This document shows positions 25,141-60,884 of a DNA stretch of 64,000 nt, in pieces. The position numbers and the translations under genes were made by a program. Position 1 is the stretch's first letter. Every line of letters starts with the position of its first letter. The notes beneath the pieces were generated by a model. It made no database searches, was not told where the DNA came from, and saw nothing but the letters and a program-made list of their open reading frames with translations. This stretch comes from a virus. The DNA is taken from IMG/VR virus record IMGVR_UViG_3300037420_002497; one strand, 5' to 3'.

Positions 25141-25740
25141 TCAGGTCAGCTCGCTGAAGGCGTAATCGGCGATCAGCAGGGCGTCCGCTTGGTTGTGCGC
25201 CTTCACCGGTTGCAGCTGATGAGCCAAACCGGGGAAGCGCTCGGCGGCCTTGTCGCGGCTGGCGTTCTTGTCCGCCTTGCCGCCGTTGGCCGCCTTCTGC
25301 TCTTTGGTCTCGGTGAGCTTGAAGTGCTCCTTCCACGCCTGCGGGCGGATGGCCCGGGTCTCGTGGCCGAACACATCCAGGACGCCCTCGACCACGCCGC
25401 GCGAGTGCATCAGGCTGCCCTGCGACTGGATCGAGTTGCCGTGCGCGCCGCCGTTGCCCTGCGGGCGCGCCTGCACGTCCTCGTAGACGATCAGCGCCGC
25501 CTCGCCCGGGGGCACCAGCTGGCGCAGCAGGGCCAGCAGCTGGTCGCCGCAGATGCGCACGGCCTGCTTGACGCGGGTCTTGGCCTTCTTGCCGGGTACG
25601 GGCGCCTTCTTGCTTCTGACCTTGACCACCTTGGCCTCACCCACCTTGCGCAGCGGCAGGTCGTGCACCTCGGCGCCGCCGTTGTGGTCAACCTTGGCCA
25701 CGGCGCCCGTTTTCCCGATGTCAATGCCGATGACAACCAT
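25141..25740 (-). CDS. RuvC-like Holliday junction resolvase (199 aa)
   Basis: N-terminal VIGIDIGKTGAVA, and then LIVYED and ADALLIADY motifs, as in RuvC/YqgF-fold nucleases. Confidence 0.6.
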   Translation of the reverse strand: MVVIGIDIGKTGAVAKVDHNGGAEVHDLPLRKVGEAKVVKVRSKKAPVPGKKAKTRVKQAVRICGDQLLALLRQLVPPGEAALIVYEDVQARPQGNGGAHGNSIQSQGSLMHSRGVVEGVLDVFGHETRAIRPQAWKEHFKLTETKEQKAANGGKADKNASRDKAAERFPGLAHQLQPVKAHNQADALLIADYAFSELT

Positions 25741-25988
25741 TACCACTTGCTCTTTTGGAATTGACGAAACCACGGCTTGTTCTTCGGCGCCTGCAGCGGC
25801 TTGGGCCGGTCGCACAGCTCGGTCTGGGGCCACAGCCGGCCATCGGTACGCAGCACCATCCCGCTCGGGCCCACGCTGACCACCACCAGCCGCTGGCTGC
25901 CGTTCACGATCACGTCGCCGACCTCATAGGCCACGGCAGCGAAGCGCGTCACGTTGGACGCTTGCGCGAACGCCACACCGAACTTCAC
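25740..25988 (-). CDS. hypothetical protein (82 aa), GTG start
   Basis: GTGA overlap with the upstream gene and TAATG overlap with the downstream gene. Confidence 0.4.
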   Translation of the reverse strand: MKFGVAFAQASNVTRFAAVAYEVGDVIVNGSQRLVVVSVGPSGMVLRTDGRLWPQTELCDRPKPLQAPKNKPWFRQFQKSKW

Positions 25989-27539: not shown

Positions 27540-28463
27540 TCACGCTGCAGCTCCCGCCAGCCGGAAGATGGAGGACTGCGGCACCGGCATGCGCGGCGGC
27601 GGCTCCCGCCAGCGCCGGCCGCTGACGATGTCGCGCACCGTGACCGGCCCCAGCCCCGTGCGGGCCACGATCTCGGGGGCGGCCACGCCTTGCGCCTTGA
27701 GCAGGCGCACCTCGCGCGCCAGCTCCATGGTGCAGAAGCTGCGTTGGCGGCGCATCGTGTCGGCCCGCTTGGCGTTGGTCTCGGGGCGGCCCATGACGCC
27801 CTGCTGGTGCAGCCAGCTCATGTGCTCCGAGCGCGTCATCGCCTTGAGGTGGCGCAGGCACAGGCGGTTGCCGCAGGCCGGCGCGATCGTGAAGCCATCG
27901 GGGCTGCGCCCGTACATCTCGCGGTACACGCGGTTGCGCACGTCGATGTGCCCCTGCACCGGGCGGCCCCACTTGTTGGTCTCGCGCGTCCACAGCAGGC
28001 AGCGCCCGACGTGCCGGGCCAGCGTGGTGGGCGAGCTGTCGGAGCGCTCCACGCGCTCCCGCAGCCACACCTCCAGCCACTCGCGGCGCGCCTGGACGTG
28101 CGCGTCCTGCAGCGGCTCAAGCAGCGAATCCAGCCACTTCTGGCGCTTGGCGCGCTGCCCCGGGGTCTGCAGATCCAGCGCGGTGATGAGGCGCGGCTTG
28201 GCCTTGCTCTCGACCCGGGCCTGCTCGATCACCTCGGCCGCCTCGATGGCGGCGCTGAGGGCGGTCTTGGGCGTGGCCGGCTTGGCGGCGGCCGGGGCGG
28301 CGCAGCCCGGGCAGTGCCACCACGTCTTGTCCACGCGCTTCCAGCCGGGCCCTTCCAGGCGGGGCTGGTGGCACTTGTCGCACAGCCGGGTGAACAGCTG
28401 CGCGGGCGCGGAAAACGCGATCCGGCGCTCCGGGGCGCCTGTGGCGGATTCGTAGTTTCTCAT
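27540..28463 (-). CDS. HNH endonuclease-domain protein with N-terminal zinc finger and C-terminal HTH (307 aa)
   Basis: CGNRLCLRHL is an HNH_3-like motif; CDKCH...WHCPGC is a zinc finger. Confidence 0.55.
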   Translation of the reverse strand: MRNYESATGAPERRIAFSAPAQLFTRLCDKCHQPRLEGPGWKRVDKTWWHCPGCAAPAAAKPATPKTALSAAIEAAEVIEQARVESKAKPRLITALDLQTPGQRAKRQKWLDSLLEPLQDAHVQARREWLEVWLRERVERSDSSPTTLARHVGRCLLWTRETNKWGRPVQGHIDVRNRVYREMYGRSPDGFTIAPACGNRLCLRHLKAMTRSEHMSWLHQQGVMGRPETNAKRADTMRRQRSFCTMELAREVRLLKAQGVAAPEIVARTGLGPVTVRDIVSGRRWREPPPRMPVPQSSIFRLAGAAA

Positions 28464-29251
28464 CGGGTCTGGGGAGTCTTGGACCGGGCCTCGCGCAGCT
28501 CGCGCGCCTTGGCCGCCGCCTCGGCGCGCTGCTGGGGCGTCATCTCGTCGGCACGCAGGTACTGCTGGGTCCGGTCGGCATCACGGGAGGGGACGGTGGG
28601 GGCCGGGCCGGCGGGCAGCGAGCCCTGGTGCAGACCCTTGGCTTGCAGGGCGGCTTCTTCGCGCCGCTTGGTCACGATGGCCAGGGCGTAGGCAAAGCCC
28701 CGGCGGCGCTCGGCCGCCTCGCGGGCGGCGCCGACGAACTCCTCTTGCGTGGCGCCGGACTGCAGCAGCATCAGCAGCCCGGCATGCCCGGGGTTCACGT
28801 CCTGGCAGCCCACCTGCCGCATGGCCCGGCACACCAGACCGGCCTGGGTCGGCACCACGCGCTGGTCGCCCGTGACGGGGCTGTTGGACGGTCCAACAGG
28901 CGCGTCCGCCTCGGGCAGGCGGTGCTCGTCGAAGCGCGGGATGACGACGCCGCCACCGTCCGCGCGCAGCCAGTCAATGGCCACCAGCGCCTCGGCAAAC
29001 CCGGGGATGCCCGTCTTGCGGTCGATCTGGCGTGCCGGCAGATTCGGCAGCTGGCCCTGGCGCCCGTGCCGGCTCACCGCCGCCCAGAGCCAGTAGAGCC
29101 CGCCGATGACGTGCGCCTCGGCACAACCCGTGACCTCGCACAGGGCGGCCACGCGGGGGTCATCCCACAGGTTCGCGCGCATGAAGATCCCCGGGCCGCT
29201 CACGCCGACCCCCGCGCACGAAAGACCCGCTGCATGGAAAATTTCCCGCAA
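28460..29251 (-). CDS. hypothetical protein, possibly replication-associated (263 aa)
   Basis: second gene of the early operon after the Cro-like gene; basic C-terminal tail; contains one copy of the 17-bp palindrome. Confidence 0.4.
   Translation of the reverse strand: MREIFHAAGLSCAGVGVSGPGIFMRANLWDDPRVAALCEVTGCAEAHVIGGLYWLWAAVSRHGRQGQLPNLPARQIDRKTGIPGFAEALVAIDWLRADGGGVVIPRFDEHRLPEADAPVGPSNSPVTGDQRVVPTQAGLVCRAMRQVGCQDVNPGHAGLLMLLQSGATQEEFVGAAREAAERRRGFAYALAIVTKRREEAALQAKGLHQGSLPAGPAPTVPSRDADRTQQYLRADEMTPQQRAEAAAKARELREARSKTPQTR
28882..28898. promoter_or_regulatory. dispersed palindrome site 2 (TGTTGGACGGTCCAACA), inside a CDS
   Basis: perfect 8-1-8 palindrome. Confidence 0.5.
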
Positions 29252-29333
29252 GAACGTGTGACAAATTCACGACAAATGCGGCTTGCCCCTATTGCAGGGA
29301 GGGGTCGCCCAACGGGGCGATTGCGCGAAGCGA

Positions 29334-29347
29334 ACCAATGGCTAAAC
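29334..29347. promoter_or_regulatory. operator-like site O1 (ACCAATGGCTAAAC)
   Basis: related to O2, O3 and O4. Confidence 0.4.
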
Positions 29348-29383
29348 ATCAGGCTCATGGATGCAGGCACGCCGTTCGCTCCG

Positions 29384-29674
29384 TCACGCCGTTTGCGCGG
29401 TCTCCGCAGGGAGGCCGGGCGCCCCAGGACTGCCGATCAGCTCAGGCCAATGGATCGGCCAGTCGAGCGGGCGCAGCTTCCAGCGCGGCACCTGCCCGTT
29501 GGTTGCGCGCTCCACCTCGGCGCAGCGATACAGGGGAACGGCCTTCCACCCCTTTTCGTCGCGCTGCTTCTTCCACCGACTCACGACCACCGGGCTCACC
29601 CCCAGCTCGCGCGCAAGACGGGCTGCAAGGCCGCGCTCGGGCTGCATGAGGTACTGCCGGATGTCCATTTCCAT
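29384..29674 (-). CDS. YdaS/Cro-like HTH regulator (about 96 aa; a GTG at 29716 would give 110 aa)
   Basis: LARELGVSPVVVSRWKK...VPLYRCAEVERATNGQV...LRPLDW resembles YdaS/Cro-family proteins. Confidence 0.55.
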   Translation of the reverse strand: MEMDIRQYLMQPERGLAARLARELGVSPVVVSRWKKQRDEKGWKAVPLYRCAEVERATNGQVPRWKLRPLDWPIHWPELIGSPGAPGLPAETAQTA

Positions 29675-29685
29675 GGGCCAAAAGT

Positions 29686-29701
29686 TTAGCCGTTGGCTTA
29701 A
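29686..29701. promoter_or_regulatory. operator-like site O2 (TTAGCCGTTGGCTTAA)
   Basis: imperfect palindrome 12 nt upstream of the cro-like ATG. Confidence 0.45.
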
Positions 29702-29774
29702 CTTCCCCGAAGCCACGGGATTCGCTTCCCCGGCCCGTCAGCGATCCACTGGATACAAGTCCACTTGAATCAAG

Positions 29775-29787
29775 TAGCCAATGGCTA
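29775..29787. promoter_or_regulatory. operator-like site O3 (TAGCCAATGGCTA, perfect 13-bp palindrome)
   Basis: in the divergent intergenic region, 14 nt upstream of the repressor-like gene. Confidence 0.5.
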
Positions 29788-29800
29788 TCAAAATCGCGCC

Positions 29801-30316
29801 ATGAAAACTAGCGAAGAAATAAGGGTTGTTCGGCTCAAGCAGCTGATAGAGGAGTGCGGAGGTTCCGTGCAGGCGGTAGCCCACGCCATGGGACGGCCGA
29901 CCTCCCAAATCTGCAGCCTGCGCGACATGACCGTGCGGAAGGTGGGCTCCAAGGCCAAGGGAACCGAGAAGGAGCTGCCGCGTGTCATAGGGCCGGATCT
30001 GGCCCGCGAGTTTGAGGTACGGTTCGGCAAGCCCCGAGGCTGGATGGACAACGATCCCAGGCTCGTAGCGGGCGTCAACGACGAGCACACGGAAATCTGG
30101 CGCCAGATCGCGATGAAGCTGGCCAAGAAGTGCCGCGCCGAAGGCATCCTGGTGGATGCATCCAACTTCCTCGGGCTCGTGGACGACCTGACCGCCAAGC
30201 TGGAGGTCAGCGACGACGCCGCCGAGAAGGCCGCCGCCCTGTACGAGGAGTTCATGGGCATCTTCGCCCGGCGGCTGCTGCAGCCGAGCAACGGAGACGC
30301 TTCCGTTCTGCGGTAA
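29801..30316 (+). CDS. HTH repressor-like protein (171 aa)
   Basis: N-terminal HTH (SVQAVAHAMGRPTSQICSL); divergent from the cro-like gene; ATG chosen over an upstream TTG. Confidence 0.5.
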   Translation: MKTSEEIRVVRLKQLIEECGGSVQAVAHAMGRPTSQICSLRDMTVRKVGSKAKGTEKELPRVIGPDLAREFEVRFGKPRGWMDNDPRLVAGVNDEHTEIWRQIAMKLAKKCRAEGILVDASNFLGLVDDLTAKLEVSDDAAEKAAALYEEFMGIFARRLLQPSNGDASVLR

Positions 30317-30351
30317 AAGCTACCGGATTCTGTATTATCCGAAGGTAACCG

Positions 30352-30657
30352 GTGCTTAACGTTCGGCGCCGGACATCGGCCGATGGCCGTCACCGAAGGA
30401 TCACCGTGGGCGAGACGAAGAAGCAGCTGCGAGCCGAGGACATCGGCTCCAAGGTCGATCAACTCCTGGAGGGCATCGACCTCCGAGAGCTGCAAGGCGG
30501 GGGCGGCGACCCGGGCGGCGACTACCGCAGGGCGCCCGTCTTCGTCATCGTCGGGGACAACAACACGATCAATGTGCCCAGCGCCTGCGCCGGCTGCGCC
30601 AAGGCGCCCCGGGTCGTCGAGGTTCCGACCATCCAAGGGGTTGGACTGTCCAGCTAG
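30352..30657 (+). CDS. hypothetical protein (GTG 30352, or GTG 30409 with a GAAGGA RBS)
   Basis: TATTAT -10-like hexamer upstream; a terminator lies downstream. Confidence 0.3.
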   Translation: MLNVRRRTSADGRHRRITVGETKKQLRAEDIGSKVDQLLEGIDLRELQGGGGDPGGDYRRAPVFVIVGDNNTINVPSACAGCAKAPRVVEVPTIQGVGLSS

Positions 30658-30702
30658 GCAACCCCGCAACTGCGGGTCGCGGCCCTCCAGCCCCCCCCCA
30701 AA

Positions 30703-30727
30703 GGCCCGCTTCGGCGGGCTTTTTTGC
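30703..30727 (+). terminator. rho-independent terminator
   Basis: stem GCCCGCTTCGGCGGGC followed by TTTTTT. Confidence 0.65.
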
Positions 30728-30771
30728 GCCCCCCATGAATCCAAGGGATCGACATAAACCCCTGGATATGA

Positions 30772-30811
30772 ACCGTTGGCTATTGACACGGTTAATCCCA
30801 CAGCTACCATG
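30772..30811 (+). promoter_or_regulatory. operator-like site O4 (ACCGTTGGCTAT) overlapping a TTGACA -35 box
   Basis: TTGACA at 30783-30788, then about 17 nt, then TACCAT. Confidence 0.4.
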
Positions 30812-30840
30812 CGATCCCACAGCGTCAGCCATGACGCAGC

Positions 30841-31395
30841 ATGGAGGCACTGGTGGCAGACAGGGCGGAATTCCTCATCCAACGCGCCGAGGCGGCCGGG
30901 CAAGCTGCCCACGCGGCCGAGACCCGGCGCAGCGGAGGCAACAGCGCCCTGGCCGCACTGGCTCGCGCCTGGGCCGTCATCAACGCGCTGAAGGCCGCGC
31001 TGCGGCAGGTGTTCCTCGACCACGGCAGCCCGCACACGGCCTTCGCGCCCACGCAACCCGCCGAGCCGGCGCCCACCAGCCACGTCATCGACTCGACCAT
31101 GGGCGTCGGCGGCACGCCGGTGCGCATCGAGTACGACATCGACCGCGAGGGCGTCCCGTGCATCCTGGCGATCTGGTTCAACGACCAGCCGCCGTACCTC
31201 GGCGACCTGGAGGAAGCCTTCTCGGGCTGGCAGGTGCGCACCTGGAACGCCCAGGTCGAGATCGACGCGATGTGCCAGCTCCAGGCCCACGCCCAGGACG
31301 AGACGGCGCGCCCGGCCAAGAACCGCACGCACGTCACCCACAACCGGTTCCTGGATCGTCCCTACAGCAACGATCGGATCAAAGGGGGCGCGTGA
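30841..31395 (+). CDS. hypothetical protein (184 aa)
   Basis: ORF coupled (TGATG) to the next gene. Confidence 0.5.
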   Translation: MEALVADRAEFLIQRAEAAGQAAHAAETRRSGGNSALAALARAWAVINALKAALRQVFLDHGSPHTAFAPTQPAEPAPTSHVIDSTMGVGGTPVRIEYDIDREGVPCILAIWFNDQPPYLGDLEEAFSGWQVRTWNAQVEIDAMCQLQAHAQDETARPAKNRTHVTHNRFLDRPYSNDRIKGGA

Positions 31396-31724
31396 TGGCG
31401 GCCAATGCCTACCTGAGCTGCGTGGAGCTGCAGTCGGCGCTGCGGATCGTGCACCGCCGCCGTGACCCGTCGAACGAGCGGCTGCTCGACGCCATGGAGC
31501 GCACTTGCTTCGCGCTGGCGCAGCCGGGCGAGGGCTGCGACCGGGCCGAGGACTGCAAGCGCAGCGCCGAGTGCGCCGCGCTGCGCACCCCGCCCGAGGC
31601 GCCCGAGATCGCCCGCGTCGTGCTCACGCACATGCTGCCGCTGCGCTCCCGCCCGTCCATGCGCGACGGCATCCACCGCAACATCGCCGTGATCCGCCGC
31701 GAGAGCCAAGGGAACCCCCAATGA
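31395..31724 (+). CDS. hypothetical protein (109 aa)
   Basis: AAAGGGGG RBS; GTGATG start overlaps the upstream stop codon. Confidence 0.5.
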   Translation: MAANAYLSCVELQSALRIVHRRRDPSNERLLDAMERTCFALAQPGEGCDRAEDCKRSAECAALRTPPEAPEIARVVLTHMLPLRSRPSMRDGIHRNIAVIRRESQGNPQ

Positions 31725-31921
31725 GCGCCCTGCTGCGCTTCCTGCGCACCGCCCCCAGCGAGTTCCCCAACCCCGACCTGATGAACCACGAGGTCGAGCA
31801 CGAGCTGGCGCCGCGCCTGGACGACGCGGCCGGCAAGGGCGGCAGCTGGCTGGTGGCGCTGGTCGTCGCGCTGTCCACCGTGGCCGTCATCGCGCTGTCC
31901 GCCGCGACCCTGCCCGCCTGA
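31721..31921 (+). CDS. small membrane protein (66 aa)
   Basis: ATGA overlap with the upstream gene; C-terminal transmembrane segment WLVALVVALSTVAVIAL. Confidence 0.4.
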   Translation: MSALLRFLRTAPSEFPNPDLMNHEVEHELAPRLDDAAGKGGSWLVALVVALSTVAVIALSAATLPA

Positions 31922-31976
31922 ACCCATTCGCGGGGGAGCCGGCAGCCCGCCTTTTCTGCCGGCAGTTGAAAGACAA

Positions 31977-32618
31977 ATGATGACCGCAATCACCGCCGCC
32001 CAGCTGGGTGAGTTCGACTACAAGTTCCTGATCGACGCCTCCTTCTCCCAGGGAACGAAGGACTGTGCCGGCGGCAAGAAATCGCGCTGGGACTTCATGC
32101 AGGAAACCCTGCTGTCCACCTTCGCCGACATCGAGAAGTTCGACAGCGATGGCGTGGAAGTGCTCATCTACCAAGGCTCCCATGTGCATGAGCACAAGGG
32201 CGTGACCAGCGCGACCCTGCCGGGCATCCTGGCCAAGTACGAGCCTCGCAACAGCACGCCCACCGCCGAGGCACTGCGCAAGGTGCTGCCCGTGACCGCC
32301 GGCAGCAACGGCAAGAAGCTGTTCATCCAGTGCTGGACGGATGGCGTGCCCAACAGCAAGGAAGGCGTCGAGGACATCCTGATCGCCCAGGCCAGCGCCC
32401 AGAAGAACGACGAAGACTGCACGGTGCAGTTTGTCCAGGTGGGCTTCGATGAGGAGGCCGGCGACTGGCTGCTCAACGAGCTGGACAACGGCCTCAAGGC
32501 CAAGGCCAAGGCGCTGGGCTACGGGGAAATCTTCGACATCGTGGACGTGCGCACGATGAAGGATCTGGAAGCCTTCGCCAACCCGGTGGACATGATCGTC
32601 GCCGGCATCAACGACTGA
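31977..32618 (+). CDS. von Willebrand factor A (vWA) domain protein (213 aa)
   Basis: MIDAS-like DASFS and TDG motifs in a Rossmann-like arrangement. Confidence 0.65.
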   Translation: MMTAITAAQLGEFDYKFLIDASFSQGTKDCAGGKKSRWDFMQETLLSTFADIEKFDSDGVEVLIYQGSHVHEHKGVTSATLPGILAKYEPRNSTPTAEALRKVLPVTAGSNGKKLFIQCWTDGVPNSKEGVEDILIAQASAQKNDEDCTVQFVQVGFDEEAGDWLLNELDNGLKAKAKALGYGEIFDIVDVRTMKDLEAFANPVDMIVAGIND

Positions 32619-32673
32619 TCCCGAGCCTGCACTGAAACCGGGCGGCTTGCCGCCGCCCTTTCCCGAGACACCC

Positions 32674-32799
32674 ATGATCGGCGACTTCCTCCTCCTCGTC
32701 CTGGCCTTTGCCGGCGGCGCGCACCTGGGCCACAAGTACGGCGGCCCGCTGGCGCTGTGGGCCAAGGCAAAGGCCTTGCTGCAGAGCCTCAAGGGCTGA
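32674..32799 (+). CDS. tiny membrane protein (41 aa)
   Basis: hydrophobic sequence IGDFLLLVLAFAGGAHL; weak RBS. Confidence 0.25.
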   Translation: MIGDFLLLVLAFAGGAHLGHKYGGPLALWAKAKALLQSLKG

Positions 32800-32832
32800 C
32801 GCCCTTTTTCTGTCCCACAGCCAGGAGTTCCC

Positions 32833-34032
32833 ATGAGCAGCTTCCCCCTCGGTCCCGTCGTCGGCAACCCCCTCGCCGCGTCGCGGCAGCACCAGCACAA
32901 GCCCCGCCTGCTGGCCGCGCTGCAGCCGCCGGCCGCGCGCGTCACGGCGCTGGGCACCGTAAGCCAGGACGCCAGCGGGAAGCTGCAGTTCGTGCCGAAC
33001 TACGCCAAGCAGGAAAGCAAGCCAGCCCCGGCCAAGCCCGCCCCCGCCACCCGCTTCAAGGCCGGCGAGCGCGTGCGCATCCAAGCCAGCGCAGCCCAGC
33101 TCCACGGGTACGGCATCACCTACGAATCCGCCGTCTGGATGTCGGCGCAACCCTCGCTGCTGGTGGACGGCGCCCACGAGCAGAGCGACGACGCCGCCTA
33201 CTCGCTCAAGGACCAGCACGGGTACAGCTGGGCGGTGCCTGGGCGGTTTGTTGCCGCCCCCACACCCGAGCCGCAGACGCCGGCTGCGCACCAGACCGCC
33301 CTCCAGGCCGGCGCCGACCACTATGCGTGGCTGCAAGGCATGGCCCGCAGCCTGGAGCCGGTGCAGGTGCATGCACCCAACTGGGCCGAGCACGGCCTGC
33401 TCGGTTACATCTCGCGGGTGGACGTGGCCGTCACCTCGGGCCACCACAACGAGGTGCGAGTCGCTGTCCACCTGCAGAACAACAGCACGCTGGAGCTGTC
33501 CGGCGACGAGGCCGTGCAGGTGCTGCGCAAGGCCGCCAAGCAACCCCGGCAGGAGCCGGCCGAGCTGCCGCGCTTCAATTGCTTCCACGACATGGCCACC
33601 TACACCGGCGACGTGCAGGTCCACCTCCCCGGGCACCCCAAGCACGGCCTGCGCGGGCGCATCGACCGCATGAACACGCTTTTTGATGGCGACGCGCTCA
33701 GGGTGACCGCCTATGCCCTGCTGGAGGACGGCACGGCGCTGGCGCTGGTCGGGGACAAGGCACTGGACGGATTCCGCCGCGCCTTCGATCCGCTCAAGGA
33801 GCCGCTGGCGATGGGCGACCAAGCCGAGGTTGACTGCCCTGGGATGGATGCCCACGGCAAGCGCGGCGTCATCAGCCAGATCACCCGGGACAGCCGCTGC
33901 CCGGAAGACGCCACCTACGAGCTGACCCTGGAGGGTGTCCCGGCCAGGATGATCCAGTTCCACAGCCGCCGCCTGCTCAAGCTGCTGCGCAAGGCCGGCA
34001 GCGTCACGCTGGCGCTGGAGGGGCAGCGCTGA
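32833..34032 (+). CDS. hypothetical protein (399 aa)
   Basis: CAGGAGTTCCCATG start context. Confidence 0.6.
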   Translation: MSSFPLGPVVGNPLAASRQHQHKPRLLAALQPPAARVTALGTVSQDASGKLQFVPNYAKQESKPAPAKPAPATRFKAGERVRIQASAAQLHGYGITYESAVWMSAQPSLLVDGAHEQSDDAAYSLKDQHGYSWAVPGRFVAAPTPEPQTPAAHQTALQAGADHYAWLQGMARSLEPVQVHAPNWAEHGLLGYISRVDVAVTSGHHNEVRVAVHLQNNSTLELSGDEAVQVLRKAAKQPRQEPAELPRFNCFHDMATYTGDVQVHLPGHPKHGLRGRIDRMNTLFDGDALRVTAYALLEDGTALALVGDKALDGFRRAFDPLKEPLAMGDQAEVDCPGMDAHGKRGVISQITRDSRCPEDATYELTLEGVPARMIQFHSRRLLKLLRKAGSVTLALEGQR

Positions 34033-34163
34033 TGTTCAACGTCCAGCAACTGCTGGCCAAGGGCTCGATCGAGGGCCCTTGCCGGCCCCGTCGCCCCTCG
34101 CTGCGCGTGCTGCTGACGCTGGCCGCGCGCGCGCTGCTGCAGCGCCTGGAGGGCCGCCGGTGA
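34031..34163 (+). CDS. tiny basic protein (43 aa) bridging two genes
   Basis: TGATG overlap upstream and GTGA overlap downstream. Confidence 0.25.
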
Positions 34164-35260
34164 GCCTGTTCCAGCGGGCCGAGAACGCCCAGGCCTACGC
34201 CAAGATCGGCATCCTGGGCTTCACCGGCGACGGCAAGACGCACACCGCCTGCGTGATCGCGATCGGTCTGGTGCAGCTGCTGCGCGAGCGCAACATCGCC
34301 GCCGGCAGCCGCCCGGTGCTGTTCATCGACACCGAGCGCGGCAGCGACTGGATGAAGCCGCTGTTCGATGACGCCGGCATCGAGCTGTGGGTGTCGCGCA
34401 CGCGCAGCTTCGTTGACCTGCTCACCGCGATCGAGGAAGCCGTCAAGGCCGGCGCGGTGCTCATCATCGACAGCATCACGCACTTCTGGCGCGTGCTGTG
34501 CGACGAGTACATGCTGCGGCGCAACCGCCGCAACGGACTGGAGATCAGCGACTGGTCCTGGCTCAAGGCCAAGTGGGGCGAGTTCACCCGCGCGTTCCTC
34601 AATGCCGAGTGCCACATCATCATCTGCGGGCGCGCGGGCTACATCTACGACCGCTCGGAAGATGCCGATGGCCGCCAGCAGGTGCGCAAGACCGGCGTGC
34701 AGCTCAAAGCCGAGGGCGAGACCGGGCACGAGCCCAGCCTGCTGGTCCTGATGGAGCGCCAGGAGGGCCCGCCCGAGGAGTGGGGCGGCAAGCCGCGCAT
34801 CTGGCGCACCGCGACCATCCTGAAGGACCGCAGCCGCCAGATCGACGGCAAGACCTTCGACGACCCGGGCTTCGACGCCTTCCGCGCGCACATCGAGTGC
34901 CTGAACCTGGGCGGCACGGACGAGGGCATCGACTTCAGCCGCAACAACAGCGCCCTGTTCTCCGAGGACGGCACGCCGACGTGGCAGCGCGAGCGCCAGT
35001 GGAAAGACGTGGCCCTGGACGAGATCGACGCGTGCCTCGCCAAGCACTTCCCCGGCCAGGGCGCCGAGGCCAAGGCCAAGCGCATGGAGTTCCTGGAGAA
35101 GGCGCTGGACACCCGCAGCTGGGAGCGCGCCAAGACCCTGCCCTGGCTCGACATCGAGCGCGGGCGCAACTTTTTGTGGATCACGCTGGAGGGCAAGCCC
35201 TACAGCGTGGCTCCGGTGGTGCACCAGACGAATGAGGAGTTCGGCGACGTGCCCATGTGA
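34160..35260 (+). CDS. P-loop ATPase, AAA_24/Sak4-like core plus C-terminal extension (366 aa)
   Basis: Walker A GFTGDGKTHT; FIDTERG; Walker B VLIIDSITHF. Confidence 0.6.
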   Translation: MSLFQRAENAQAYAKIGILGFTGDGKTHTACVIAIGLVQLLRERNIAAGSRPVLFIDTERGSDWMKPLFDDAGIELWVSRTRSFVDLLTAIEEAVKAGAVLIIDSITHFWRVLCDEYMLRRNRRNGLEISDWSWLKAKWGEFTRAFLNAECHIIICGRAGYIYDRSEDADGRQQVRKTGVQLKAEGETGHEPSLLVLMERQEGPPEEWGGKPRIWRTATILKDRSRQIDGKTFDDPGFDAFRAHIECLNLGGTDEGIDFSRNNSALFSEDGTPTWQRERQWKDVALDEIDACLAKHFPGQGAEAKAKRMEFLEKALDTRSWERAKTLPWLDIERGRNFLWITLEGKPYSVAPVVHQTNEEFGDVPM

Positions 35261-35340
35261 CGTTTTCAAGGGCGACCAGCGGTGTGGGGTTCGCCATCCC
35301 TCCTGATCGAGGTTGTCACTGGCCTCGGTCCTTCCCACAC

Positions 35341-35371
35341 CGCGCCCCTCGGGGCCGCCCTTTCTTTTTTC
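35341..35371 (+). terminator. putative rho-independent terminator
   Basis: stem GCCCCTCGGGGC followed by CGCCCTTTCTTTTTTC. Confidence 0.5.
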
Positions 35372-35529
35372 GGGTGCCGCGCGTGCCGGGGGTCTTTTCC
35401 TCATCCCTCCCTCGTTGCCCGGCGCGCCTCATGCAAATGAGCACCCTTTTTTCATACGTGGCAACTGCGTAGTCCAGGGGTGGCGAGCCCGGCCGATAGA
35501 GCCGGGCCGCTACCCCACCCCACAACACC

Positions 35530-35886
35530 ATGAACACGCTCAAGATCGTTGACGACCTCCACGTTGCCCAGGCGTGGATCTACCTCGGCGCCAAGAACGC
35601 CGCCGAGTACGCCCGCAGCAAGGCCGACGAGCACGGGGTCGTGGGCATGAACGTGCTGGCCGACCTGCTGGAGGCGGATCTTCGTGCGCAGGGCGCCGAG
35701 CTGAGCCTGCGCAACATCGGGGTGGCCACCGAGCACGGTTTCAAGGCGTCCGCCGACAGGCTCAAGATCCGCACCGGCAAGGATGGCGTGTGGCTGGAAT
35801 GGGAGCCGCTGGACGACGCCGCGACGCCGGCCCAGCAGCTGGGCGCGGGCGCCGATGGCGATGCGGGCGTGGTGGGGGTGGCGTGA
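35530..35886 (+). CDS. hypothetical protein (118 aa)
   Basis: first ORF after the terminator. Confidence 0.5.
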   Translation: MNTLKIVDDLHVAQAWIYLGAKNAAEYARSKADEHGVVGMNVLADLLEADLRAQGAELSLRNIGVATEHGFKASADRLKIRTGKDGVWLEWEPLDDAATPAQQLGAGADGDAGVVGVA

Positions 35887-36071
35887 TGGTCCCTTTCACC
35901 AGCATCGAAGTCATCAAGACCACCGTGCGCAAGCTGCTGAGCGTCGAGCCCGGACAGACCACGCGCGAGGCGACCGCCGCTGCCGTCGAGCGGGCCGCCG
36001 AGGAGCTGAGCCTCACGCCCGAGATCGTGCGTCGCGCCTTTGAAGGCCGGCGCGACGAGACCCCCGCCTGA
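35886..36071 (+). CDS. hypothetical protein (61 aa)
   Basis: GTGATG start overlaps the upstream stop codon. Confidence 0.4.
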   Translation: MVPFTSIEVIKTTVRKLLSVEPGQTTREATAAAVERAAEELSLTPEIVRRAFEGRRDETPA

Positions 36072-36747
36072 ACCCGCCCTGATCGAGCCCGCCGTGCTGT
36101 CCTCCAGCCCGTTCGCGCAGCTGCTGCGCATCGCCGAGAACCCCAAGAAGCTCAGGAAGCTCAGCGGGCCGAAGCAGCGCCCGCTGCAGGCGGGGCGCCA
36201 GCGCAATCCGCTGCTGCCGCCGAAGGAGCTGCCGGCGATCGAGCCCGTCCGCGTGCAGGACCACGGCTCGCACGTCGCGGCGCTGCTGCACCTGCTGGAG
36301 ACGCGGGGGCCGCTGTGGGCCACCCAGCTGCGTGACGCGACGGGGCTGGACCTGCAGCAGATCCGCTGGGCGCTGGCGCAGCCCTACCACCAGGGCCGCA
36401 TCGCCTCGGCGGGGGTGCGCGGCAACCCGCAGCGGATCTGGATCGTCGAGGGCCCGATCAGGCCGCGACGACACCACCGAACCTGCCTGGATGGCCTGCA
36501 GCCGCTGGACCTGCCGCGTATCGAGCCGGTGCGCCTGGAGGACTTCCCGTCCCGAGCCGAGGCCCTGGTGCAGCTGCTGGCCACGCACGGCCCGCTGTGG
36601 GCGCCGCAGCTGGCCGAGGCCACCGGGCTGACCGTGCGCGACGTGCGCAACGCGCTGATCCACCGCATCGAGAAGGGCGAGGTCAAGACCAAGCGCCGCG
36701 CGCCGTGCCCGCTGCTCTACAGCCTCAACCGCAAGGCCGCCGCATGA
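36040..36747 (+). CDS. protein with two tandem winged-helix-like repeats (235 aa; TTG start, start uncertain)
   Basis: internal repeat LL.LLETRGPLWATQLRDATGL and LVQLLATHGPLWAPQLAEATGL. Confidence 0.45.
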   Translation: MKAGATRPPPEPALIEPAVLSSSPFAQLLRIAENPKKLRKLSGPKQRPLQAGRQRNPLLPPKELPAIEPVRVQDHGSHVAALLHLLETRGPLWATQLRDATGLDLQQIRWALAQPYHQGRIASAGVRGNPQRIWIVEGPIRPRRHHRTCLDGLQPLDLPRIEPVRLEDFPSRAEALVQLLATHGPLWAPQLAEATGLTVRDVRNALIHRIEKGEVKTKRRAPCPLLYSLNRKAAA

Positions 36748-37094
36748 CCGCCGACAACCCCTTCGCGCAACTGGTCCGGGTGTGCCTGCGCGGTCACGCC
36801 GGGCGCGCCCCGGAGGCCCGGGTGGAGCGGGACAACACGCCGATTCCGCCGCTCGATCCCAAGCCCCGCAAGGGAACGATCGGCCCGGCCATGGTGCGGC
36901 TGCTGGAGCAGTACCACCACCGCGAGCTGAGCACCGAGCAGCTGGCCGCCGCCGTGGGACTGGCCAGCCTCGCCGATGTCTGGGGGCTGCTCAAGCAGGC
37001 CCGCAAGACCGGCCGCGTCGTGGTCGCGCGCGGCCTGTGGCGCATCAACCCCGACTGGACCAACAACACGAAAGCCCGCCATGACGACGAATGA
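36744..37094 (+). CDS. winged-helix-like protein, paralog of the upstream gene (116 aa)
   Basis: shares the N-terminal NPFAQL(V/L)R motif and an HTH-like segment; ATGA overlap with the upstream gene. Confidence 0.5.
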   Translation: MTADNPFAQLVRVCLRGHAGRAPEARVERDNTPIPPLDPKPRKGTIGPAMVRLLEQYHHRELSTEQLAAAVGLASLADVWGLLKQARKTGRVVVARGLWRINPDWTNNTKARHDDE

Positions 37095-37548
37095 CCCCCA
37101 GGCCCAGGCCATCACCGAGGAGTGCTGGTCGCACGACGGCGAGACCTTCGACTGCCAGTCGCTGGGCGAGCTGCTGGACAACCATGGCGACGAGCTGGCG
37201 CCCGGCGACACGGTGTATGTGGGCACCGCCCACCGCCCGCCGCTGGAGAAGCTGATCTACGTGGACGACGTGCTGGAGCCCATGGGCGAGCGCGCCTACG
37301 AGATCGTGGGCGAGCACGCCGAGGACTATCCCGAGGTGTCGCAGGAGGCCAAGGGCGAGCTGCTGGCGCTGCTGCTGGGCTGGGCCCGCAAGCACGCCAT
37401 GCCGAATTTCTGGACCGTGCGCGGTGTGCGCGAGTACGTGCTCAGCGAGGAGGATCTGGCTGTTGGACCGTCCAACAGCGAGCTGCCGCCCGAGCTGTAC
37501 GCCCAGTCCCCGCTGGATGCGGTGGACGCCGCGCTGGGGGCCGAGTGA
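37081..37548 (+). CDS. hypothetical acidic protein (155 aa)
   Basis: 14-nt overlap with the upstream gene; contains one palindrome site. Confidence 0.5.
   Translation: MTTNDPQAQAITEECWSHDGETFDCQSLGELLDNHGDELAPGDTVYVGTAHRPPLEKLIYVDDVLEPMGERAYEIVGEHAEDYPEVSQEAKGELLALLLGWARKHAMPNFWTVRGVREYVLSEEDLAVGPSNSELPPELYAQSPLDAVDAALGAE
37461..37477. promoter_or_regulatory. dispersed palindrome site 3 (TGTTGGACCGTCCAACA), inside a CDS
   Basis: perfect palindrome. Confidence 0.5.
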
Positions 37549-37549
37549 C

Positions 37550-38161
37550 ATGAGCCGTCCGATCCTCCAAGAAGGCCCGAACGGCGAGTGCCTGTATTGC
37601 GGCATCGTGCGCGACGAGCCGTGCAGCCGCTTCTGCTCGCAGGAGAAGGCCGCCATGAGCTGCAGCACCTGGAAGCAGAAGGCCGCCTCGCCGGGGCTGG
37701 ACGACAACGCTTGGGTGCACGAGCCGGGCCCGCGCCGCGCCTACGTGCCGCGCGAGTGGCTGGCGTTCGCGCACGAGGTCATCGGCTGCTGCGAGGCGGT
37801 GGCGGGGCCCATCGGCGAGCTGGCCAAGAAGGCACGGGAACTGGTGGCCACCACGCAGCCCACCCCGCGCCGGATGCAGGCCATCAAGGACATCCCGAAC
37901 CTGATGGCCAAGGGCAGCTTCTGGGTCGAGATCCGGCCCAACGTGTTCCGTCCGGCAATACACCCCGAGGGCGACGCCGGGCTGGACTTCAACTACCTGG
38001 GAGCATGCGGCTACCCGGTGGAGAAATACCTCGCGCCGGTGACGCCGCGCGCACCTGCCGGCAAGAGCGCCTGCGGGGAATGCGGGCGCGTGTGCGAGCC
38101 GTGCTCGGACTACTGCGGCAACACGCAAGTGCCTGTCGCGCGGCGAGAAATCCGGGGCTGA
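37550..38161 (+). CDS. Cys-rich hypothetical protein (203 aa)
   Basis: several CxxC-like pairs; start lies 2 nt after the upstream stop codon. Confidence 0.5.
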   Translation: MSRPILQEGPNGECLYCGIVRDEPCSRFCSQEKAAMSCSTWKQKAASPGLDDNAWVHEPGPRRAYVPREWLAFAHEVIGCCEAVAGPIGELAKKARELVATTQPTPRRMQAIKDIPNLMAKGSFWVEIRPNVFRPAIHPEGDAGLDFNYLGACGYPVEKYLAPVTPRAPAGKSACGECGRVCEPCSDYCGNTQVPVARREIRG

Positions 38162-38239
38162 GCTGGCACAGGCCGAGAAGCCACTGATTTTTGATGCCCA
38201 AGATTATCGGACGTAATCTGAACTAGAAGTTAACGAAGC

Positions 38240-38533
38240 ATGGACCGCAAGACCCTCAACCGCCTCGCCCTGGAGGCTGGCTTCCCGCCCGGCGTGCTGG
38301 CGCCGCATGGCGTGAGCGCGAGCTACGACTTGCCGCTGCTGGATCGCCTGGAGCTGTTTGCCAAGCTGGTGCTGCAGGAGCGTGACGGCTCGCGCGAGCA
38401 CTGGCGCCGCACCTTTGCCGCCGCCGCGCTGCCCGCCTACTTGGGCAAGAACGGCTACGGCGCCGCCGAGGCCCTGGACATCGCCATCGAGACGGCCAAT
38501 GTGATGACGCAGCGCCTTTTCCCCAACGAGTAA
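38240..38533 (+). CDS. hypothetical protein (97 aa)
   Basis: lower-GC promoter-like region upstream. Confidence 0.5.
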   Translation: MDRKTLNRLALEAGFPPGVLAPHGVSASYDLPLLDRLELFAKLVLQERDGSREHWRRTFAAAALPAYLGKNGYGAAEALDIAIETANVMTQRLFPNE

Positions 38534-38934
38534 TGGAAGCAATGGACGCAAATATCCCGACGACCGAAGCCATCCGCGAGGCCGGCAACGTGCTGGTGCT
38601 CGCCTGCCACGGCGCTTCCAGACGCGGCGGCTGGTGGCATGACCTGCACACCGGCGAGCCGCTGAAGCGCAACGTTGGCGAGCTGCTGTGCCTTGTCCAC
38701 AGCGAAGTCAGCGAGGCCATGGAAGGCCATCGCAAGAACCTCATGGACGACAAGCTGCCCCATCGACCGATGATCGAAGTCGAGCTGGCCGACGCCGTGA
38801 TCCGCATCAGCGACATGGCCGGCGGCCTGGGCTTGGACCTGGGCGGCGCCATCGCGGAAAAGATGGCGTTCAACGCCTCCCGTGCGGATCACAAGCCCGA
38901 GGCCCGCAAAGCCCCCGGCGGCAAGGCGTACTGA
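38533..38934 (+). CDS. mazG: MazG-like nucleotide pyrophosphohydrolase (133 aa)
   Basis: LLCLVHSEVSEAMEG and ELADAVIRISDMA match the MazG EExxE and helix pattern. Confidence 0.65.
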   Translation: MEAMDANIPTTEAIREAGNVLVLACHGASRRGGWWHDLHTGEPLKRNVGELLCLVHSEVSEAMEGHRKNLMDDKLPHRPMIEVELADAVIRISDMAGGLGLDLGGAIAEKMAFNASRADHKPEARKAPGGKAY

Positions 38935-39251
38935 TGAAAGCCCTCTACCAGTTCTATTGGGACTGCAAGCGCAGTGGCGATGTCACAGGCCTGTTCGTCG
39001 CCCACAAGACCGAGGTCGAGGCCGCCATTGGTCGCAATGTCAACTTCGGCGAGATCCTGGGCAAGCACTCCGAAATCTGCGGCGTGCTGGAAACCGACGA
39101 CTTGACCATCAAGAGCGAGGACCAGGAGTTCATCGCCAAGCTGGTGGACGTGATCGGCCGCAACACGATCAGCGGCTACAACCCGCTGGAGTACCTGGGC
39201 GAGGACGAGCCGGACGACGAGGACGAGGACGAGGACGGTGAAGATGACTGA
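38934..39251 (+). CDS. hypothetical protein with poly-acidic C-terminus (105 aa)
   Basis: ATGA overlap with the upstream gene; EDEPDDEDEDEDGEDD tail. Confidence 0.5.
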   Translation: MKALYQFYWDCKRSGDVTGLFVAHKTEVEAAIGRNVNFGEILGKHSEICGVLETDDLTIKSEDQEFIAKLVDVIGRNTISGYNPLEYLGEDEPDDEDEDEDGEDD

Positions 39252-40002
39252 CTTCACCTACCACCGCAAGCCCGCCACGATCGAGGCCGTGCAATGGAAT
39301 GGCACGAAGCTGGACGCCGTGCCGCAGTGGCTCAACGATGCCATCAAGCGCGGCCCCATGCGCCGCAACGGCGTTGCCCGGGTCTTCAATGACATCGACG
39401 TGTGGAGCGCCATCGGCAGTGTCAGCACCGCCAAGCCCGGCGACTGGCTGACCTGGGAAAACGGCAGCCTGGGTACGTGCAAGGACGCCATCTTCACCAC
39501 GCTGTACGACGCGCAGCCGGATCTGCGCGCGCCCGTCGTGCGGATGGCGCATGACCAGCTGGCGCTGGAGATCGAGCGCCTGCGCCGCGACTGCGGCGAG
39601 GCCTACCAAGTCATCGGCGCCGGCATGTTCCTCGACCCCGTGGCCTACACGCAGGACGACGTGGAGCGCGCGATGGACAACCTGAATGCGGCAGCCAACG
39701 GCGCGCCCCGTCCGCACGACGACCTGCTGCCCTGGCCCAAGCCGGCCCAGGCGCTGCAGCTGTCCGCCGAGGGCTGCACGAAACCCGGCTGCTGCCCGAA
39801 CCCGGGCGCCTGCGAGGCCGAGGCCGGCGAGCAGGGCGTTGCGCAGGAGCTGGTGGAGCACTGCCGCCAGTTCATCCGCGACCAGGGCATCCATGGCCCC
39901 GAGACCATCTACCAGTGCGATGGCGTGGTCCTGAACGCCCTGGAGTTCGTCCAGGGCGTGTGCGACATCGTGGGCTACGAGCCCATCCCCAACGAAACCT
40001 GA
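39238..40002 (+). CDS. hypothetical protein (about 252 aa)
   Basis: overlaps the upstream gene; Cys pairs near the C-terminus. Confidence 0.5.
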   Translation: MKMTDFTYHRKPATIEAVQWNGTKLDAVPQWLNDAIKRGPMRRNGVARVFNDIDVWSAIGSVSTAKPGDWLTWENGSLGTCKDAIFTTLYDAQPDLRAPVVRMAHDQLALEIERLRRDCGEAYQVIGAGMFLDPVAYTQDDVERAMDNLNAAANGAPRPHDDLLPWPKPAQALQLSAEGCTKPGCCPNPGACEAEAGEQGVAQELVEHCRQFIRDQGIHGPETIYQCDGVVLNALEFVQGVCDIVGYEPIPNET

Positions 40003-40021
40003 CCCAACAAGGAACGACGAA

Positions 40022-40441
40022 ATGATGCACATCGGAAGCGGTATCCGCGACAAGTGGACCTTCGCCTACACGGCCGCCGAGGTGGCCGCTGGCGCCAAGC
40101 GCCAACAGGAATACCGCCAGTCCCGCGTGAACTGGTGGGCCGAGAAGAAGGCACAGGTGCTCAACGACATCAAGGCGCGCGGTCTGGAGGTGATCGAGAG
40201 CATCGCCGACGCCAACTACGTGCAGACGGTCTCGGCCATGAGCGGCGCGCGCGGCAATGCGCCCCGCATCGCCATCCCCTCGGACCTGCAAGAGAAGCTG
40301 CAGGAGTGCACCCAGCGCATCAGCCACCACACCAACGCCGTGCACGAGTACGCCGCCTGGGTGCAGTTCCTGGAGGCCAAGCCCGAGGAACAGCTGCAGC
40401 TCACGCAGTCCGACTGGCTGTTTTTCTTCCGCACCGCCTGA
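40022..40441 (+). CDS. hypothetical protein (139 aa)
   Basis: ORF inside the gene run. Confidence 0.5.
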   Translation: MMHIGSGIRDKWTFAYTAAEVAAGAKRQQEYRQSRVNWWAEKKAQVLNDIKARGLEVIESIADANYVQTVSAMSGARGNAPRIAIPSDLQEKLQECTQRISHHTNAVHEYAAWVQFLEAKPEEQLQLTQSDWLFFFRTA

Positions 40442-40444
40442 GCC

Positions 40445-40756
40445 ATGTTCGCGATCTTCGGCCCCGTGAAGCCCACGCCGCTGCCTCAGTGGCAAGCCCC
40501 GGCGGCGCGCCGGCCCGGCCGCCCGCCCGTGAAAACCGACTGGTTCAGCTGGCGCACCGAGCCGGCCAAGCTGGGCGTGTTTGAGCACGACGTTGCGGAC
40601 GGCAAACCCTTCTCGTGGTGGAGCGGCGTGGGCTGGTGCCTGCGCGCGAGTACGCCCGAGGAGGCCGAGCAGAACAAGTGGCTCCCGTACACCCGCCCGC
40701 AGCGCACGAGCTGGCGCGGCCTGAAGAACAAGCCCAAGGCTCGCGCCAGGAGCTGA
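40445..40756 (+). CDS. hypothetical protein (103 aa)
   Basis: ORF inside the gene run. Confidence 0.45.
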   Translation: MFAIFGPVKPTPLPQWQAPAARRPGRPPVKTDWFSWRTEPAKLGVFEHDVADGKPFSWWSGVGWCLRASTPEEAEQNKWLPYTRPQRTSWRGLKNKPKARARS

Positions 40757-40760
40757 CGCC

Positions 40761-41003
40761 GTGGCACGCAAGCTGGTTGCGCCGCACATCAAGGCCAAGG
40801 TCAGGACCGAGGCAGGGGGCTTTGAGATCGCCGGCCCCTTCCCCGGCACCCTGGTCTACCTGCTGTCCGGCGTGGCCAAGCGCTCCGAGCGCGAGCGCGT
40901 GCTGCGCGAGATGCGGGAGACCCACCAGCGCCTGTGCGAGGCCGAGGACCAGCGGCTGCGCGAGCAGATGCCCATCAACGACCTGTTTCCCGAGACCAAA
41001 TGA
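40761..41003 (+). CDS. hypothetical protein (80 aa), GTG start
   Basis: ORF inside the gene run. Confidence 0.4.
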   Translation: MARKLVAPHIKAKVRTEAGGFEIAGPFPGTLVYLLSGVAKRSERERVLREMRETHQRLCEAEDQRLREQMPINDLFPETK

Positions 41004-41679: not shown

Positions 41680-41684
41680 GCGCC

Positions 41685-47579: not shown

Positions 47580-47598
47580 CCACACCAAGGAGCCACCC

Positions 47599-48828
<1,230 letters not shown>

Positions 48829-60846: not shown

Positions 60847-60884
60847 TTCGCCACCACTGACGCCCCCACCGACAGGAGCCACAC

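Follow-up and report, generated by a model that had tools for sequence, protein, structure and literature searches.

We analyzed an operon on the plus strand of a 64-kb stretch of DNA (hereafter the window; guanine-plus-cytosine [GC] content about 68%) from the IMG/VR virus record IMGVR_UViG_3300037420_002497. The operon begins with a promoter at position 30783 and was followed to position 35260. It encodes a protein with a von Willebrand factor A (vWA) domain, a membrane peptide, a protein of 399 amino acids (aa), and a P-loop ATPase, and an original prediction made from the sequence alone had offered exclusion, defense, or recombination as possible roles for this gene set. A strong third-position GC (GC3) bias sets real genes in the window apart from many spurious open reading frames (ORFs), and GC3 values of 0.90 to 0.94 are found for the ORFs of 30841-35260.

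The first gene, g184 (30841-31395; 184 aa, GC3 0.91), is followed by g110 (31395-31724; 109 aa) and g66 (31721-31921; 66 aa), the last of which specifies a C-terminal hydrophobic helix predicted to be transmembrane (TM). Next are the vWA protein gene (31977-32618; 213 aa) and a membrane peptide gene (32674-32799, within an ORF that opens at 32647) whose 41-aa, single-pass TM product begins MIGDFLLLVLAFAGGAHLGHKYGG. The g399 gene (32833-34032; 399 aa) and the AAA_24 ATPase gene (34160-35260; 366 aa) are bridged by a small ORF, g43 (34032-34163; 43 aa). The ATPase is taken to start with GTG at 34160 because the family alignment fixes it there. Overlapping gene junctions had been reported for this operon and can be read directly in the sequence: TGATG at 31393-31397 between g184 and g110, as expected for translational coupling, ATGA at 31721-31724 between g110 and g66, and TGATG at 34030-34034 and GTGA at 34160-34163 at the two ends of g43. 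This series is interrupted by a gap of 55 nucleotides (nt) before the vWA gene and by gaps of 28-55 and 33 nt around the peptide gene. A counterpart of g43 is absent between the homologous g399-ATPase gene pair of locus L170, and it is uncertain whether g43 is a real gene.

The g184 protein has no match in Pfam, PHROG, NCBIfam, or PADLOC and no tblastn match in GenBank phages; its relatives were found only in two near-identical loci, L002 and L003. By sequence comparison, g184, g110, and g66 are lineage-specific ORFans. The L002 locus is a metagenomic copy on a 123-kb contig that is 99.5% identical to the window over 15 kb, and the whole gene arrangement is preserved in both L002 and L003. Of the 84 differences between the window and L002, 52 are clustered within 32500-33750, where they affect two patches of g399 and a loop of the vWA protein that is specific to this lineage, and there are none at all across 33750-42000. 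We considered these clustered differences as a sign of selection on g399 and rejected the idea because the changes are too few (14 synonymous and 14 nonsynonymous codons).

A sigma-70-type promoter, TTGACA-16-TACCAT, is located at 30783-30810 (+), where it has 10 of 12 possible matches and represents the sole such site in 29200-36200. An operator-like palindromic motif with the pattern CCRWTGGCTW occurs seven times in the window versus 0.58 times expected, and none of 100 shuffled sequences reaches seven copies. Five of the seven are within 29335-30782 (at 29335, 29690, 29775/29778, and 30773), a segment that includes this promoter and a divergent pair of genes for a Cro/YdaS-like protein (-) and a CI-like repressor (+). 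The best copy, TAGCCAATGGCTA (TAGCCA-A-TGGCTA), is at 29775-29787, and related matches to the pattern are present at 29335-29344, 29690-29699, and 30773-30782. The last of these abuts or overlaps the -35 box of the promoter. The overlap of promoter and operator-like site that had been noticed earlier is thus borne out, and the lone sigma-70-like site together with the enrichment of the motif supports the claim of one repressor-controlled transcription unit. The motif copies would presumably be bound by the CI-like repressor. In addition, an exact direct repeat, ATCCCACAGC, occurs at 30795-30804 and 30814-30823, upstream of the g184 start codon; its copies are 19 nt apart and together cover the -10 hexamer (30805-30810) along with the first part of the leader.

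The layout of the immunity region resembles that of lambda. The Cro/YdaS-like gene encodes a helix-turn-helix (HTH) protein (29384-29716 [-]; Pfam YdaS_toxin 1.2e-11, P22_Cro 1.5e-5; phrog_35) and likely starts with the ATG at 29674, as the gene is called with 96 aa in L002. It heads an opposite early operon that includes an O-like replication initiator gene (28460-29251) and an HNH gene (27540-28463). The CI-like repressor gene (29765-30316 [+]) matches phrog_12107, a transcriptional repressor family (2.2e-13), and likely starts with the ATG at 29801 because the profile match begins at residue 13. Between cI and a terminator-shaped hairpin is ORF101 (30352-30657 [+]; 101 aa, GC3 0.83), which has no family match in PADLOC or NCBIfam scans. 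This ORF holds the position of lambda rexAB, after cI and before the terminator, and could be a gene expressed in the lysogen. The hairpin, AAAGGCCCGC-TTCG-GCGGGCTTT followed by a T run (30700-30725 [+]), has the shape of an intrinsic terminator and closes the cI-ORF101 unit; it folds with -16.7 kcal/mol, with a z score versus shuffled sequences of only -1.1.

The last gene had been described as encoding a P-loop ATPase with a Sak4/AAA_24-like core plus a 150-aa extension, and this description proved to be accurate. The protein matches Pfam AAA_24 (2.4e-10), carries Walker A (GDGKT) and Walker B (IIDS) motifs, and aligns over its full length with phrog_1366 (4.8e-54). Its family includes 1,838 homologs at E ≤ 0.001, with copies in E. 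coli, Shigella, Cronobacter, Pseudomonas, and Achromobacter, and 103 of the best 120 listed are 340 to 400 aa long. An alignment of 20 members is conserved from end to end, and residues ~235-345 form a conserved helical domain with a high predicted local distance difference test score (pLDDT) throughout the family. The C-terminal extension of ~130-150 aa is therefore a standard family feature. The top matches of a structure search are all recombinases, with figures of 15.0 for RecA, 14.7 for RAD51D, 14.0 for XRCC3, 13.5 each for UvsX and DMC1, and 13.0 for Sak4 (8rc5; 20% identity), against about 11 for DnaB-type helicases. The fold is thus of the RecA type and not that of AAA+ MoxR proteins. 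Neighbors in BFVD are phage proteins annotated as AAA_24 or “RecA-like recombinase”, and a PDB sequence search with the ATPase profile gave no real match. From these sequence and structure-model comparisons, the ATPase is most likely a Sak4-type recombinase, as an extended variant and not a core-only protein.

Gene neighborhoods place this family among phage recombination genes. The best phage relative is gp07 of Cronobacter phage phiES15 (54.6% identity), where the order is Kil-Gam-ATPase-hyp-methylase-xis-int, and an E. coli prophage has the order RecE'-Gam-ATPase-DUF1187-xis-int. A Gam gene is immediately 5' of the ATPase gene in 42 of 80 viral (IMG/VR) loci. Among 31 high-GC ATPase loci, a gene for single-stranded DNA (ssDNA)-binding protein (SSB) is directly downstream in six and a NinB-like gene in two. 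Searches of the window by tblastn detected no SSB, Gam, or NinB. Two features of the C terminus were also observed. The ATPase P0110 of A. australica (locus L189) shares a 64-aa C-terminal tail, at 69% identity, with an unrelated protein, the phrog_3657 product encoded after YqaJ in sister prophages (L176:7725-8939). This supports the view that the AAA_24 ATPase and the phrog_3657 protein can replace each other in a single functional slot. A common tail on two unrelated recombinase-slot proteins suggests a shared interaction partner. Moreover, 29 of the 103 members of 340 to 400 aa, including that of the window (...EFGDVPM, 35240-35260), end in an acidic tail of the type [DE]..[IVLM]P. that resembles the SSB tip DDDIPF, and many other members end in ...EAA. 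We rejected the SSB-like tail as a family hallmark because it is present in only these 29 proteins.

The vWA protein of the window alone yields no Pfam match at E ≤ 0.1. However, 104 homologs of about 200 aa bear PF00092/PF13519 (VWA/VWA_2). In a 22-member family, 21 proteins match VWA_2 (best 1.3e-13), 20 match VWA, and 16 match vWA-TerF-like, and the family profile matches solved vWA domains at 6e-7 to 1e-4, with BatB-type domains among the best. As had been proposed, the protein carries a metal ion-dependent adhesion site (MIDAS), whose residues D20-x-S22-x-S24, T94, and D122 are invariant across the 22 members. The protein is probably cytoplasmic because it has no signal peptide. Homologs were not found by tblastn among 50,697 deposited phage genomes, and literature searches on phage vWA functions turned up nothing relevant.

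To survey its neighborhoods, we fetched 80 IMG/VR loci encoding relatives of the vWA protein. These range from 29 to 67% in GC content, and the larger neighbors of the vWA gene vary (Cro/CI, RecT, YqaJ, RdgC, and exonucleases). A hydrophobic ORF of 25 to 90 aa begins within 150 nt after the vWA gene in 51 of 82 loci, and most of these small ORFs share the pattern M-[IV]-D-[LF]-I-L-L...G-F-W-[CA]-G-K-K-[FY]. In 54 of 83 loci, a hidden Markov model (HMM) built from 20 of their products finds a homolog that starts -20 to +250 nt from the end of the vWA gene, at a median distance of 37 nt, and the model's only two other matches lie on the same strand but farther downstream. In some of the other loci, this position is taken by a different small membrane ORF. 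When the peptide of the window is left out of the HMM, 32674-32799 is the sole match in the window, with E = 0.004 among 31,198 six-frame segments. Therefore, the vWA gene and the gene for the ~40-aa single-pass peptide constitute a conserved, mobile two-gene cassette. The peptide is probably oriented N-out/C-in because its N terminus is acidic and its C-terminal tail is basic, and the products of the paired genes may interact. A terminator-like hairpin followed by a T run (32791-32806 [+]), where the cassette ends, is weakly evidenced; we rejected the notion that the cassette is bracketed by significant terminators because the folds are no better than those of shuffled sequences (z = -0.02 for 32791-32806). 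In a 42-kb phage-like contig (L005:10001-12785), a distance of 1.9 kb separates the vWA cassette from a gene that weakly matches the Acb2/Tad1-hairpin (anti-defense) family of Pfam.

The g399 protein has no Pfam or PHROG match, and a word-indexed homolog search returned nothing beyond the near-identical prophage copy. An exhaustive HMMER scan uncovered a family of 18 representatives. These share an N-terminal module of ~55 aa (LGPVxGN...KPHL..RL...LGT...DGR..F.PNY), which is followed by a variable number of beta-rich modules of ~68 aa, the last having the form FDPxTEPLxxGDYVEV...GKRG...SLKLIRKA. The modules resemble small stand-alone phage proteins. Segments similar to SH3 and KOW domains had been reported for this protein; one clear ~68-aa C-terminal beta-rich module, repeated in relatives, agrees with that report, whereas SH3-like Pfam matches are sub-threshold and occur in single relatives. 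An SH3/KOW-like character of the modules is plausible but weakly supported. An AlphaFold2 model of g399 from the single sequence has a pLDDT of 37, which is too poor for fold comparison.

We found no confirmed locus of the g399 family in viral contigs, and a metagenome scan yielded only two loci. A genome scan, which used a narrower alignment, revealed 18 loci, of which 13 are in named Azohydromonas genomes or metagenome-assembled genomes (MAGs) (Burkholderiales) and five are in one MAG labeled only Proteobacteria. The family is found before recombinases of different types. In L170, a g399 relative (26% identity) is followed directly by a copy of the ATPase (55% identity) and then by RdgC, and in L189 the gene next after the g399 relative encodes the AAA_24 ATPase P0110. 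In L168 and L173/L174, the relative precedes YqaJ and RecT, and in L176-L184, L186-L188, and L190 it precedes YqaJ plus a phrog_3657 protein or RecT. For 11 of the 18 genome-scan loci, the next genes encode a YqaJ exonuclease and a phrog_3657 protein or RecT (L186 meets the contig end right after YqaJ). Thus, with the exceptions of L171 and L185, the g399 family occupies the position just upstream of a recombinase of three types, or “Gam slot”. By analogy with other proteins encoded at this position, g399 might function in recombination or end protection. Five truncated copies (L191-L195; about 150-190 aa, without the C-terminal module) are carried by Azohydromonas genomes and one Proteobacteria MAG; these adjoin PAS sensor kinase genes, an insertion-sequence transposase, or a contig end, and look like prophage remnants.

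The genes of the operon have separate distributions. The ATPase family is present in 0 of 81 vWA loci (by family HMM, in agreement with tblastn), the vWA gene is present in 0 of 80 ATPase loci and 0 of 24 g399-family loci, and relatives of g184, g399, or the ATPase are absent from the 80 IMG/VR vWA loci by tblastn and family HMM. Therefore, the juxtaposition of vWA and ATPase genes is peculiar to one lineage (the window, L002, and L003). No defense model in PADLOC-DB 2.0 is matched at E ≤ 0.1 by the seven proteins of the region, and Pfam and NCBIfam searches with the operon proteins gave no MoxR or TerD-family match. Because the ATPase has a RecA fold, Ter proteins are missing, and the vWA and ATPase genes are unlinked, membership in the vWA-MoxR or Ter-like systems fails. 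Of the earlier proposals, a functional vWA-ATPase pair and a defense or exclusion operon built on it are not supported, and a recombination module fits the last two or three genes. The original prediction had also envisaged an outcome in which the ATPase is an ordinary Sak4 recombinase and the vWA protein belongs to a known replication or recombination module. Our results go about halfway in this direction, as the ATPase can be assigned to the bet/exo slot as a Sak4-like recombinase, but the vWA gene belongs to a separate two-gene cassette and not to such a module. Likewise, the recommended survey of conserved gene neighborhoods linked the vWA gene with its downstream peptide but, outside this lineage, never with the ATPase.

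The known early-left operon of lambda has the order cI-rex-tImm-OL/PL-N...gam-bet-exo...xis-int. Because the window has the same immunity layout (cI, rex position, terminator, and OL/PL), we consider 30783-35260 to be the promoter-proximal part of a repressor-controlled, lambda PL-type early operon that is a mosaic of three independently inherited modules. We assign this reading a probability of roughly 0.6. The CI-like repressor would bind operators of the type TAGCCA-N-TGGCTA, both in the cro-cI interval and at the promoter's -35 box. Induction or infection would activate the promoter, and a single transcription unit extending past 35260 would then cover these genes. The first module would comprise g184, g110, and g66, as lineage-specific genes with overlapping stop and start codons. 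The second would be the mobile cassette, where the simplest mechanism would have the membrane peptide anchor, place, or control the cytoplasmic vWA protein at the inner membrane. The MIDAS metal site might then clamp a target protein of the host or a phage by one of its acidic residues, with host takeover, exclusion, or anti-defense as candidate outcomes. In the third module, the ATPase, with its RecA/Rad51/Sak4-type core and helical domain, would most likely bind ssDNA with ATP and anneal or pair strands. This predicted recombinase activity could serve genome circularization, repair, and recombination-dependent replication. The g399 gene in front of it would hold the slot of Gam, Abc, or similar accessory proteins in other phages.

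Several observations weigh against this interpretation. The match of the ATPase to the Sak4 PHROG (phrog_124) is weak and partial (2.2e-9, residues 76-209), its own family, phrog_1366, is annotated “unknown function”, and at 366 aa it is longer than the ~200-250 aa of core-only Sak4 proteins. Neither tblastn nor scans covering part of the ORFs revealed an SSB, Gam, exonuclease, or integrase in the window, and therefore the recombination module would be minimal. The homology of the window peptide is modest given its E value, and the hairpins that flank the cassette are not better than those in shuffled sequence. Finally, the intact g399 relatives in L171 and L185 have no recognizable recombinase behind them, and the synteny of g399 comes largely from related Azohydromonas prophages, where it may partly reflect common descent; the argument from position is weakened accordingly by this shared ancestry.

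Other explanations must also be weighed. The vWA protein, the P-loop ATPase, the membrane peptides, and the 399-aa protein could form one integrated repressor-controlled defense or exclusion system similar to vWA-MoxR or Ter-like pairs. Although these genes share one promoter, have partly overlapping junctions, and keep their whole arrangement in the near-identical copies, we regard such a system as very improbable. The genes do not co-occur outside one lineage, the ATPase has a RecA fold, unlike MoxR, and occupies the bet/exo slot in other phages, PADLOC recognizes none of the proteins, and gaps plus a terminator-like hairpin separate the vWA cassette from the g399-ATPase pair. Another possibility concerns the cassette by itself, which might be a moron expressed from the prophage and not an early lytic function. 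It would protect the lysogen by abortive infection or superinfection exclusion; the peptide would act as the membrane effector and the vWA protein as a sensor or regulator. Its conservation and mobility in varied contexts and in hosts of 29-67% GC, its borders formed by a hairpin and a terminator-shaped hairpin, and the common use of small membrane peptides as effectors speak for a moron. We nonetheless hold this to be unlikely, since the cassette has no promoter-like site of its own in 29200-36200 and is located on the same strand inside a repressed early operon, the hairpins are not significant, and PADLOC gives no match.

For the third module, the question is whether its two genes are correctly assigned to recombination. 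The ATPase might be a replication protein (a helicase, helicase loader, or origin-remodeling ATPase), as the annotation “putative replicative DNA helicase” has been given to several distant AAA_24 relatives from deposited phages, and we identified no helicase or loader beside the O-like initiator in the window. However, the closest structural matches are recombinases throughout, and the family is found between Gam and xis/int or by SSB, NinB, or RdgC, away from O/P genes. Furthermore, phiES15 already has its own O- and P-like genes, behind g399 relatives the ATPase stands in place of RecT/YqaJ-type modules, and the tail of one member is shared with a protein from the slot of single-strand annealing proteins, which together make a replication role quite unlikely. 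The assignment of g399 is less secure. This gene might have nothing to do with recombination and might be merely the last gene of an upstream accessory block behind which recombinase modules are swapped. Such an origin is only somewhat less probable than even odds, as g399 has no homology to Gam, Abc, or a known recombination protein (by Pfam, PHROG, and tblastn), most of its loci come from one genus, L171 lacks a recombinase behind the relative, and 0 of 80 IMG/VR ATPase loci have a g399 relative. What favors a functional link is that, in intact loci except L171 and L185, g399 adjoins three nonhomologous recombinase types with at most two small ORFs between, that its start or stop is closely packed against recombinase genes, and that Gam occupies this very position ahead of members of the same ATPase family in phages of enterobacteria.

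The rightward unit does not end at 35260 but extends for more than 15 kb into nucleotide metabolism and RNA repair genes. These downstream genes (36040-48828 [+]) encode a Ren-like HTH protein, a MazG-like pyrophosphatase (38533-38934), a dihydrofolate reductase (DHFR; 44048-44734), and an RtcB RNA ligase (47599-48828). On the opposite early arm, a gene for a RuvC-like Holliday junction resolvase (phrog_1770) is present at 25141-25833 (-), and therefore the element has at least one further recombination function away from the ATPase. The window also carries ParA-like (AAA_31/CbiA) and ParB_N/SopB_HTH genes, plus a DUF932 gene (60016-61916, 13846-14763). No structural gene, terminase, portal, integrase, or tRNA was found within the 64 kb, where part of the ORFs were scanned for integrase, and Rfam and tRNA scans of the window were empty. 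Given the ParA/ParB-like genes and the absence of integrase, structural, and tRNA gene hits, this DNA may represent either a phage-plasmid or a temperate element of very large size. A comparison of the DNA of 29300-35400 with deposited phages revealed no similar sequence. The source is probably a temperate, phage-like element of a high-GC betaproteobacterial host, such as Azohydromonas or a relative.

These findings have some practical consequences. The proposed vWA-ATPase defense system is not there, which saves an experimental chase. A large family of RecA-fold prophage ATPases, with hundreds of E. coli and Shigella copies, is annotated only as “AAA family ATPase”, or wrongly as helicase in distant relatives, and can now be read as probable Sak4-like recombinases with an added domain. 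This helps annotation and might also aid the development of recombineering tools for high-GC hosts. The vWA gene and its conserved membrane mini-protein partner provide a testable two-gene cassette that is widespread in uncultivated phages, and the rare g399 family, a marker of the Gam slot among Azohydromonas phages, could represent a new way of handling host nucleases. A bolder view is that the operon reveals two undescribed phage functions jointly, namely a self-contained, mobile vWA-peptide system and a new, nonhomologous occupant of the Gam slot, although we consider it doubtful that both will hold. The vWA-peptide system is carried by at least 54 genomes of uncultivated phages, which differ widely in GC content, and its point of action could be the inner membrane, with a protein of the host or of a rival phage as target. 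The 399-aa family may be a host-nuclease inhibitor or a recombination accessory that works with three unrelated recombinase types. All three leads (ATPase, vWA cassette, and g399) are modest; none is established and none overturns current views.

Among known systems, the lambda PL operon offers the closest overall parallel. In both, cro and cI diverge and the palindromic operators are repeated, cI is followed by a small gene and a terminator, and an operator-overlapped promoter then leads into a string of small accessory genes, opened in the window by g184 in the position of lambda N, and on to a recombination function; moreover, relatives of the ATPase lie between Gam and xis/int. Unlike the lambda operon, however, the window has no detectable homolog of N, Gam, Bet, Exo, Xis, or Int. 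Its operon continues for more than 15 kb toward the MazG-like, DHFR, and RtcB genes, and the element has ParA/ParB-like genes. The excision and integration genes that end a lambda-type operon were not seen; the part of the window ORFs that was scanned includes no annotated or integrase-sized candidate.

The vWA protein shares the vWA fold signature and a full MIDAS with TerY/TerF-type proteins, with the Bat aerotolerance vWA proteins, and with vWA-MoxR pairs. Unlike these, its family lacks a MoxR AAA+, DUF58, TerD, kinase, or phosphatase partner, and its only conserved partner is the ~40-aa membrane peptide. It also differs in being phage-borne, yet absent from the deposited phage genomes that were searched.

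The host-nuclease inhibitors Gam of lambda and Abc of P22 are encoded just upstream of the phage recombinase, and Gam is a small helical DNA mimic. The g399 protein has no sequence similarity to Gam of related loci by tblastn and is much larger, beta-rich, and modular. However, its family has the same position relative to the recombinase, even before the ATPase family that follows Gam in enterobacterial phages.

For the ATPase itself, the nearest studied protein is Sak4 of phage HK620 (HkaL), a core-only RecA homolog with ATP-dependent ssDNA annealing activity, which the SSB of a neighboring gene stimulates (PMC5928155). The window ATPase differs from Sak4 (structure 8rc5) in its length of 366 aa with a C-terminal helical domain of ~130 aa and in the lack of an SSB gene in the window. 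Like Sak4, it has an AAA_24/RecA-core fold with Walker A and B motifs and belongs to the recombination slot of temperate phages, where an SSB gene is adjacent in some of its relatives.

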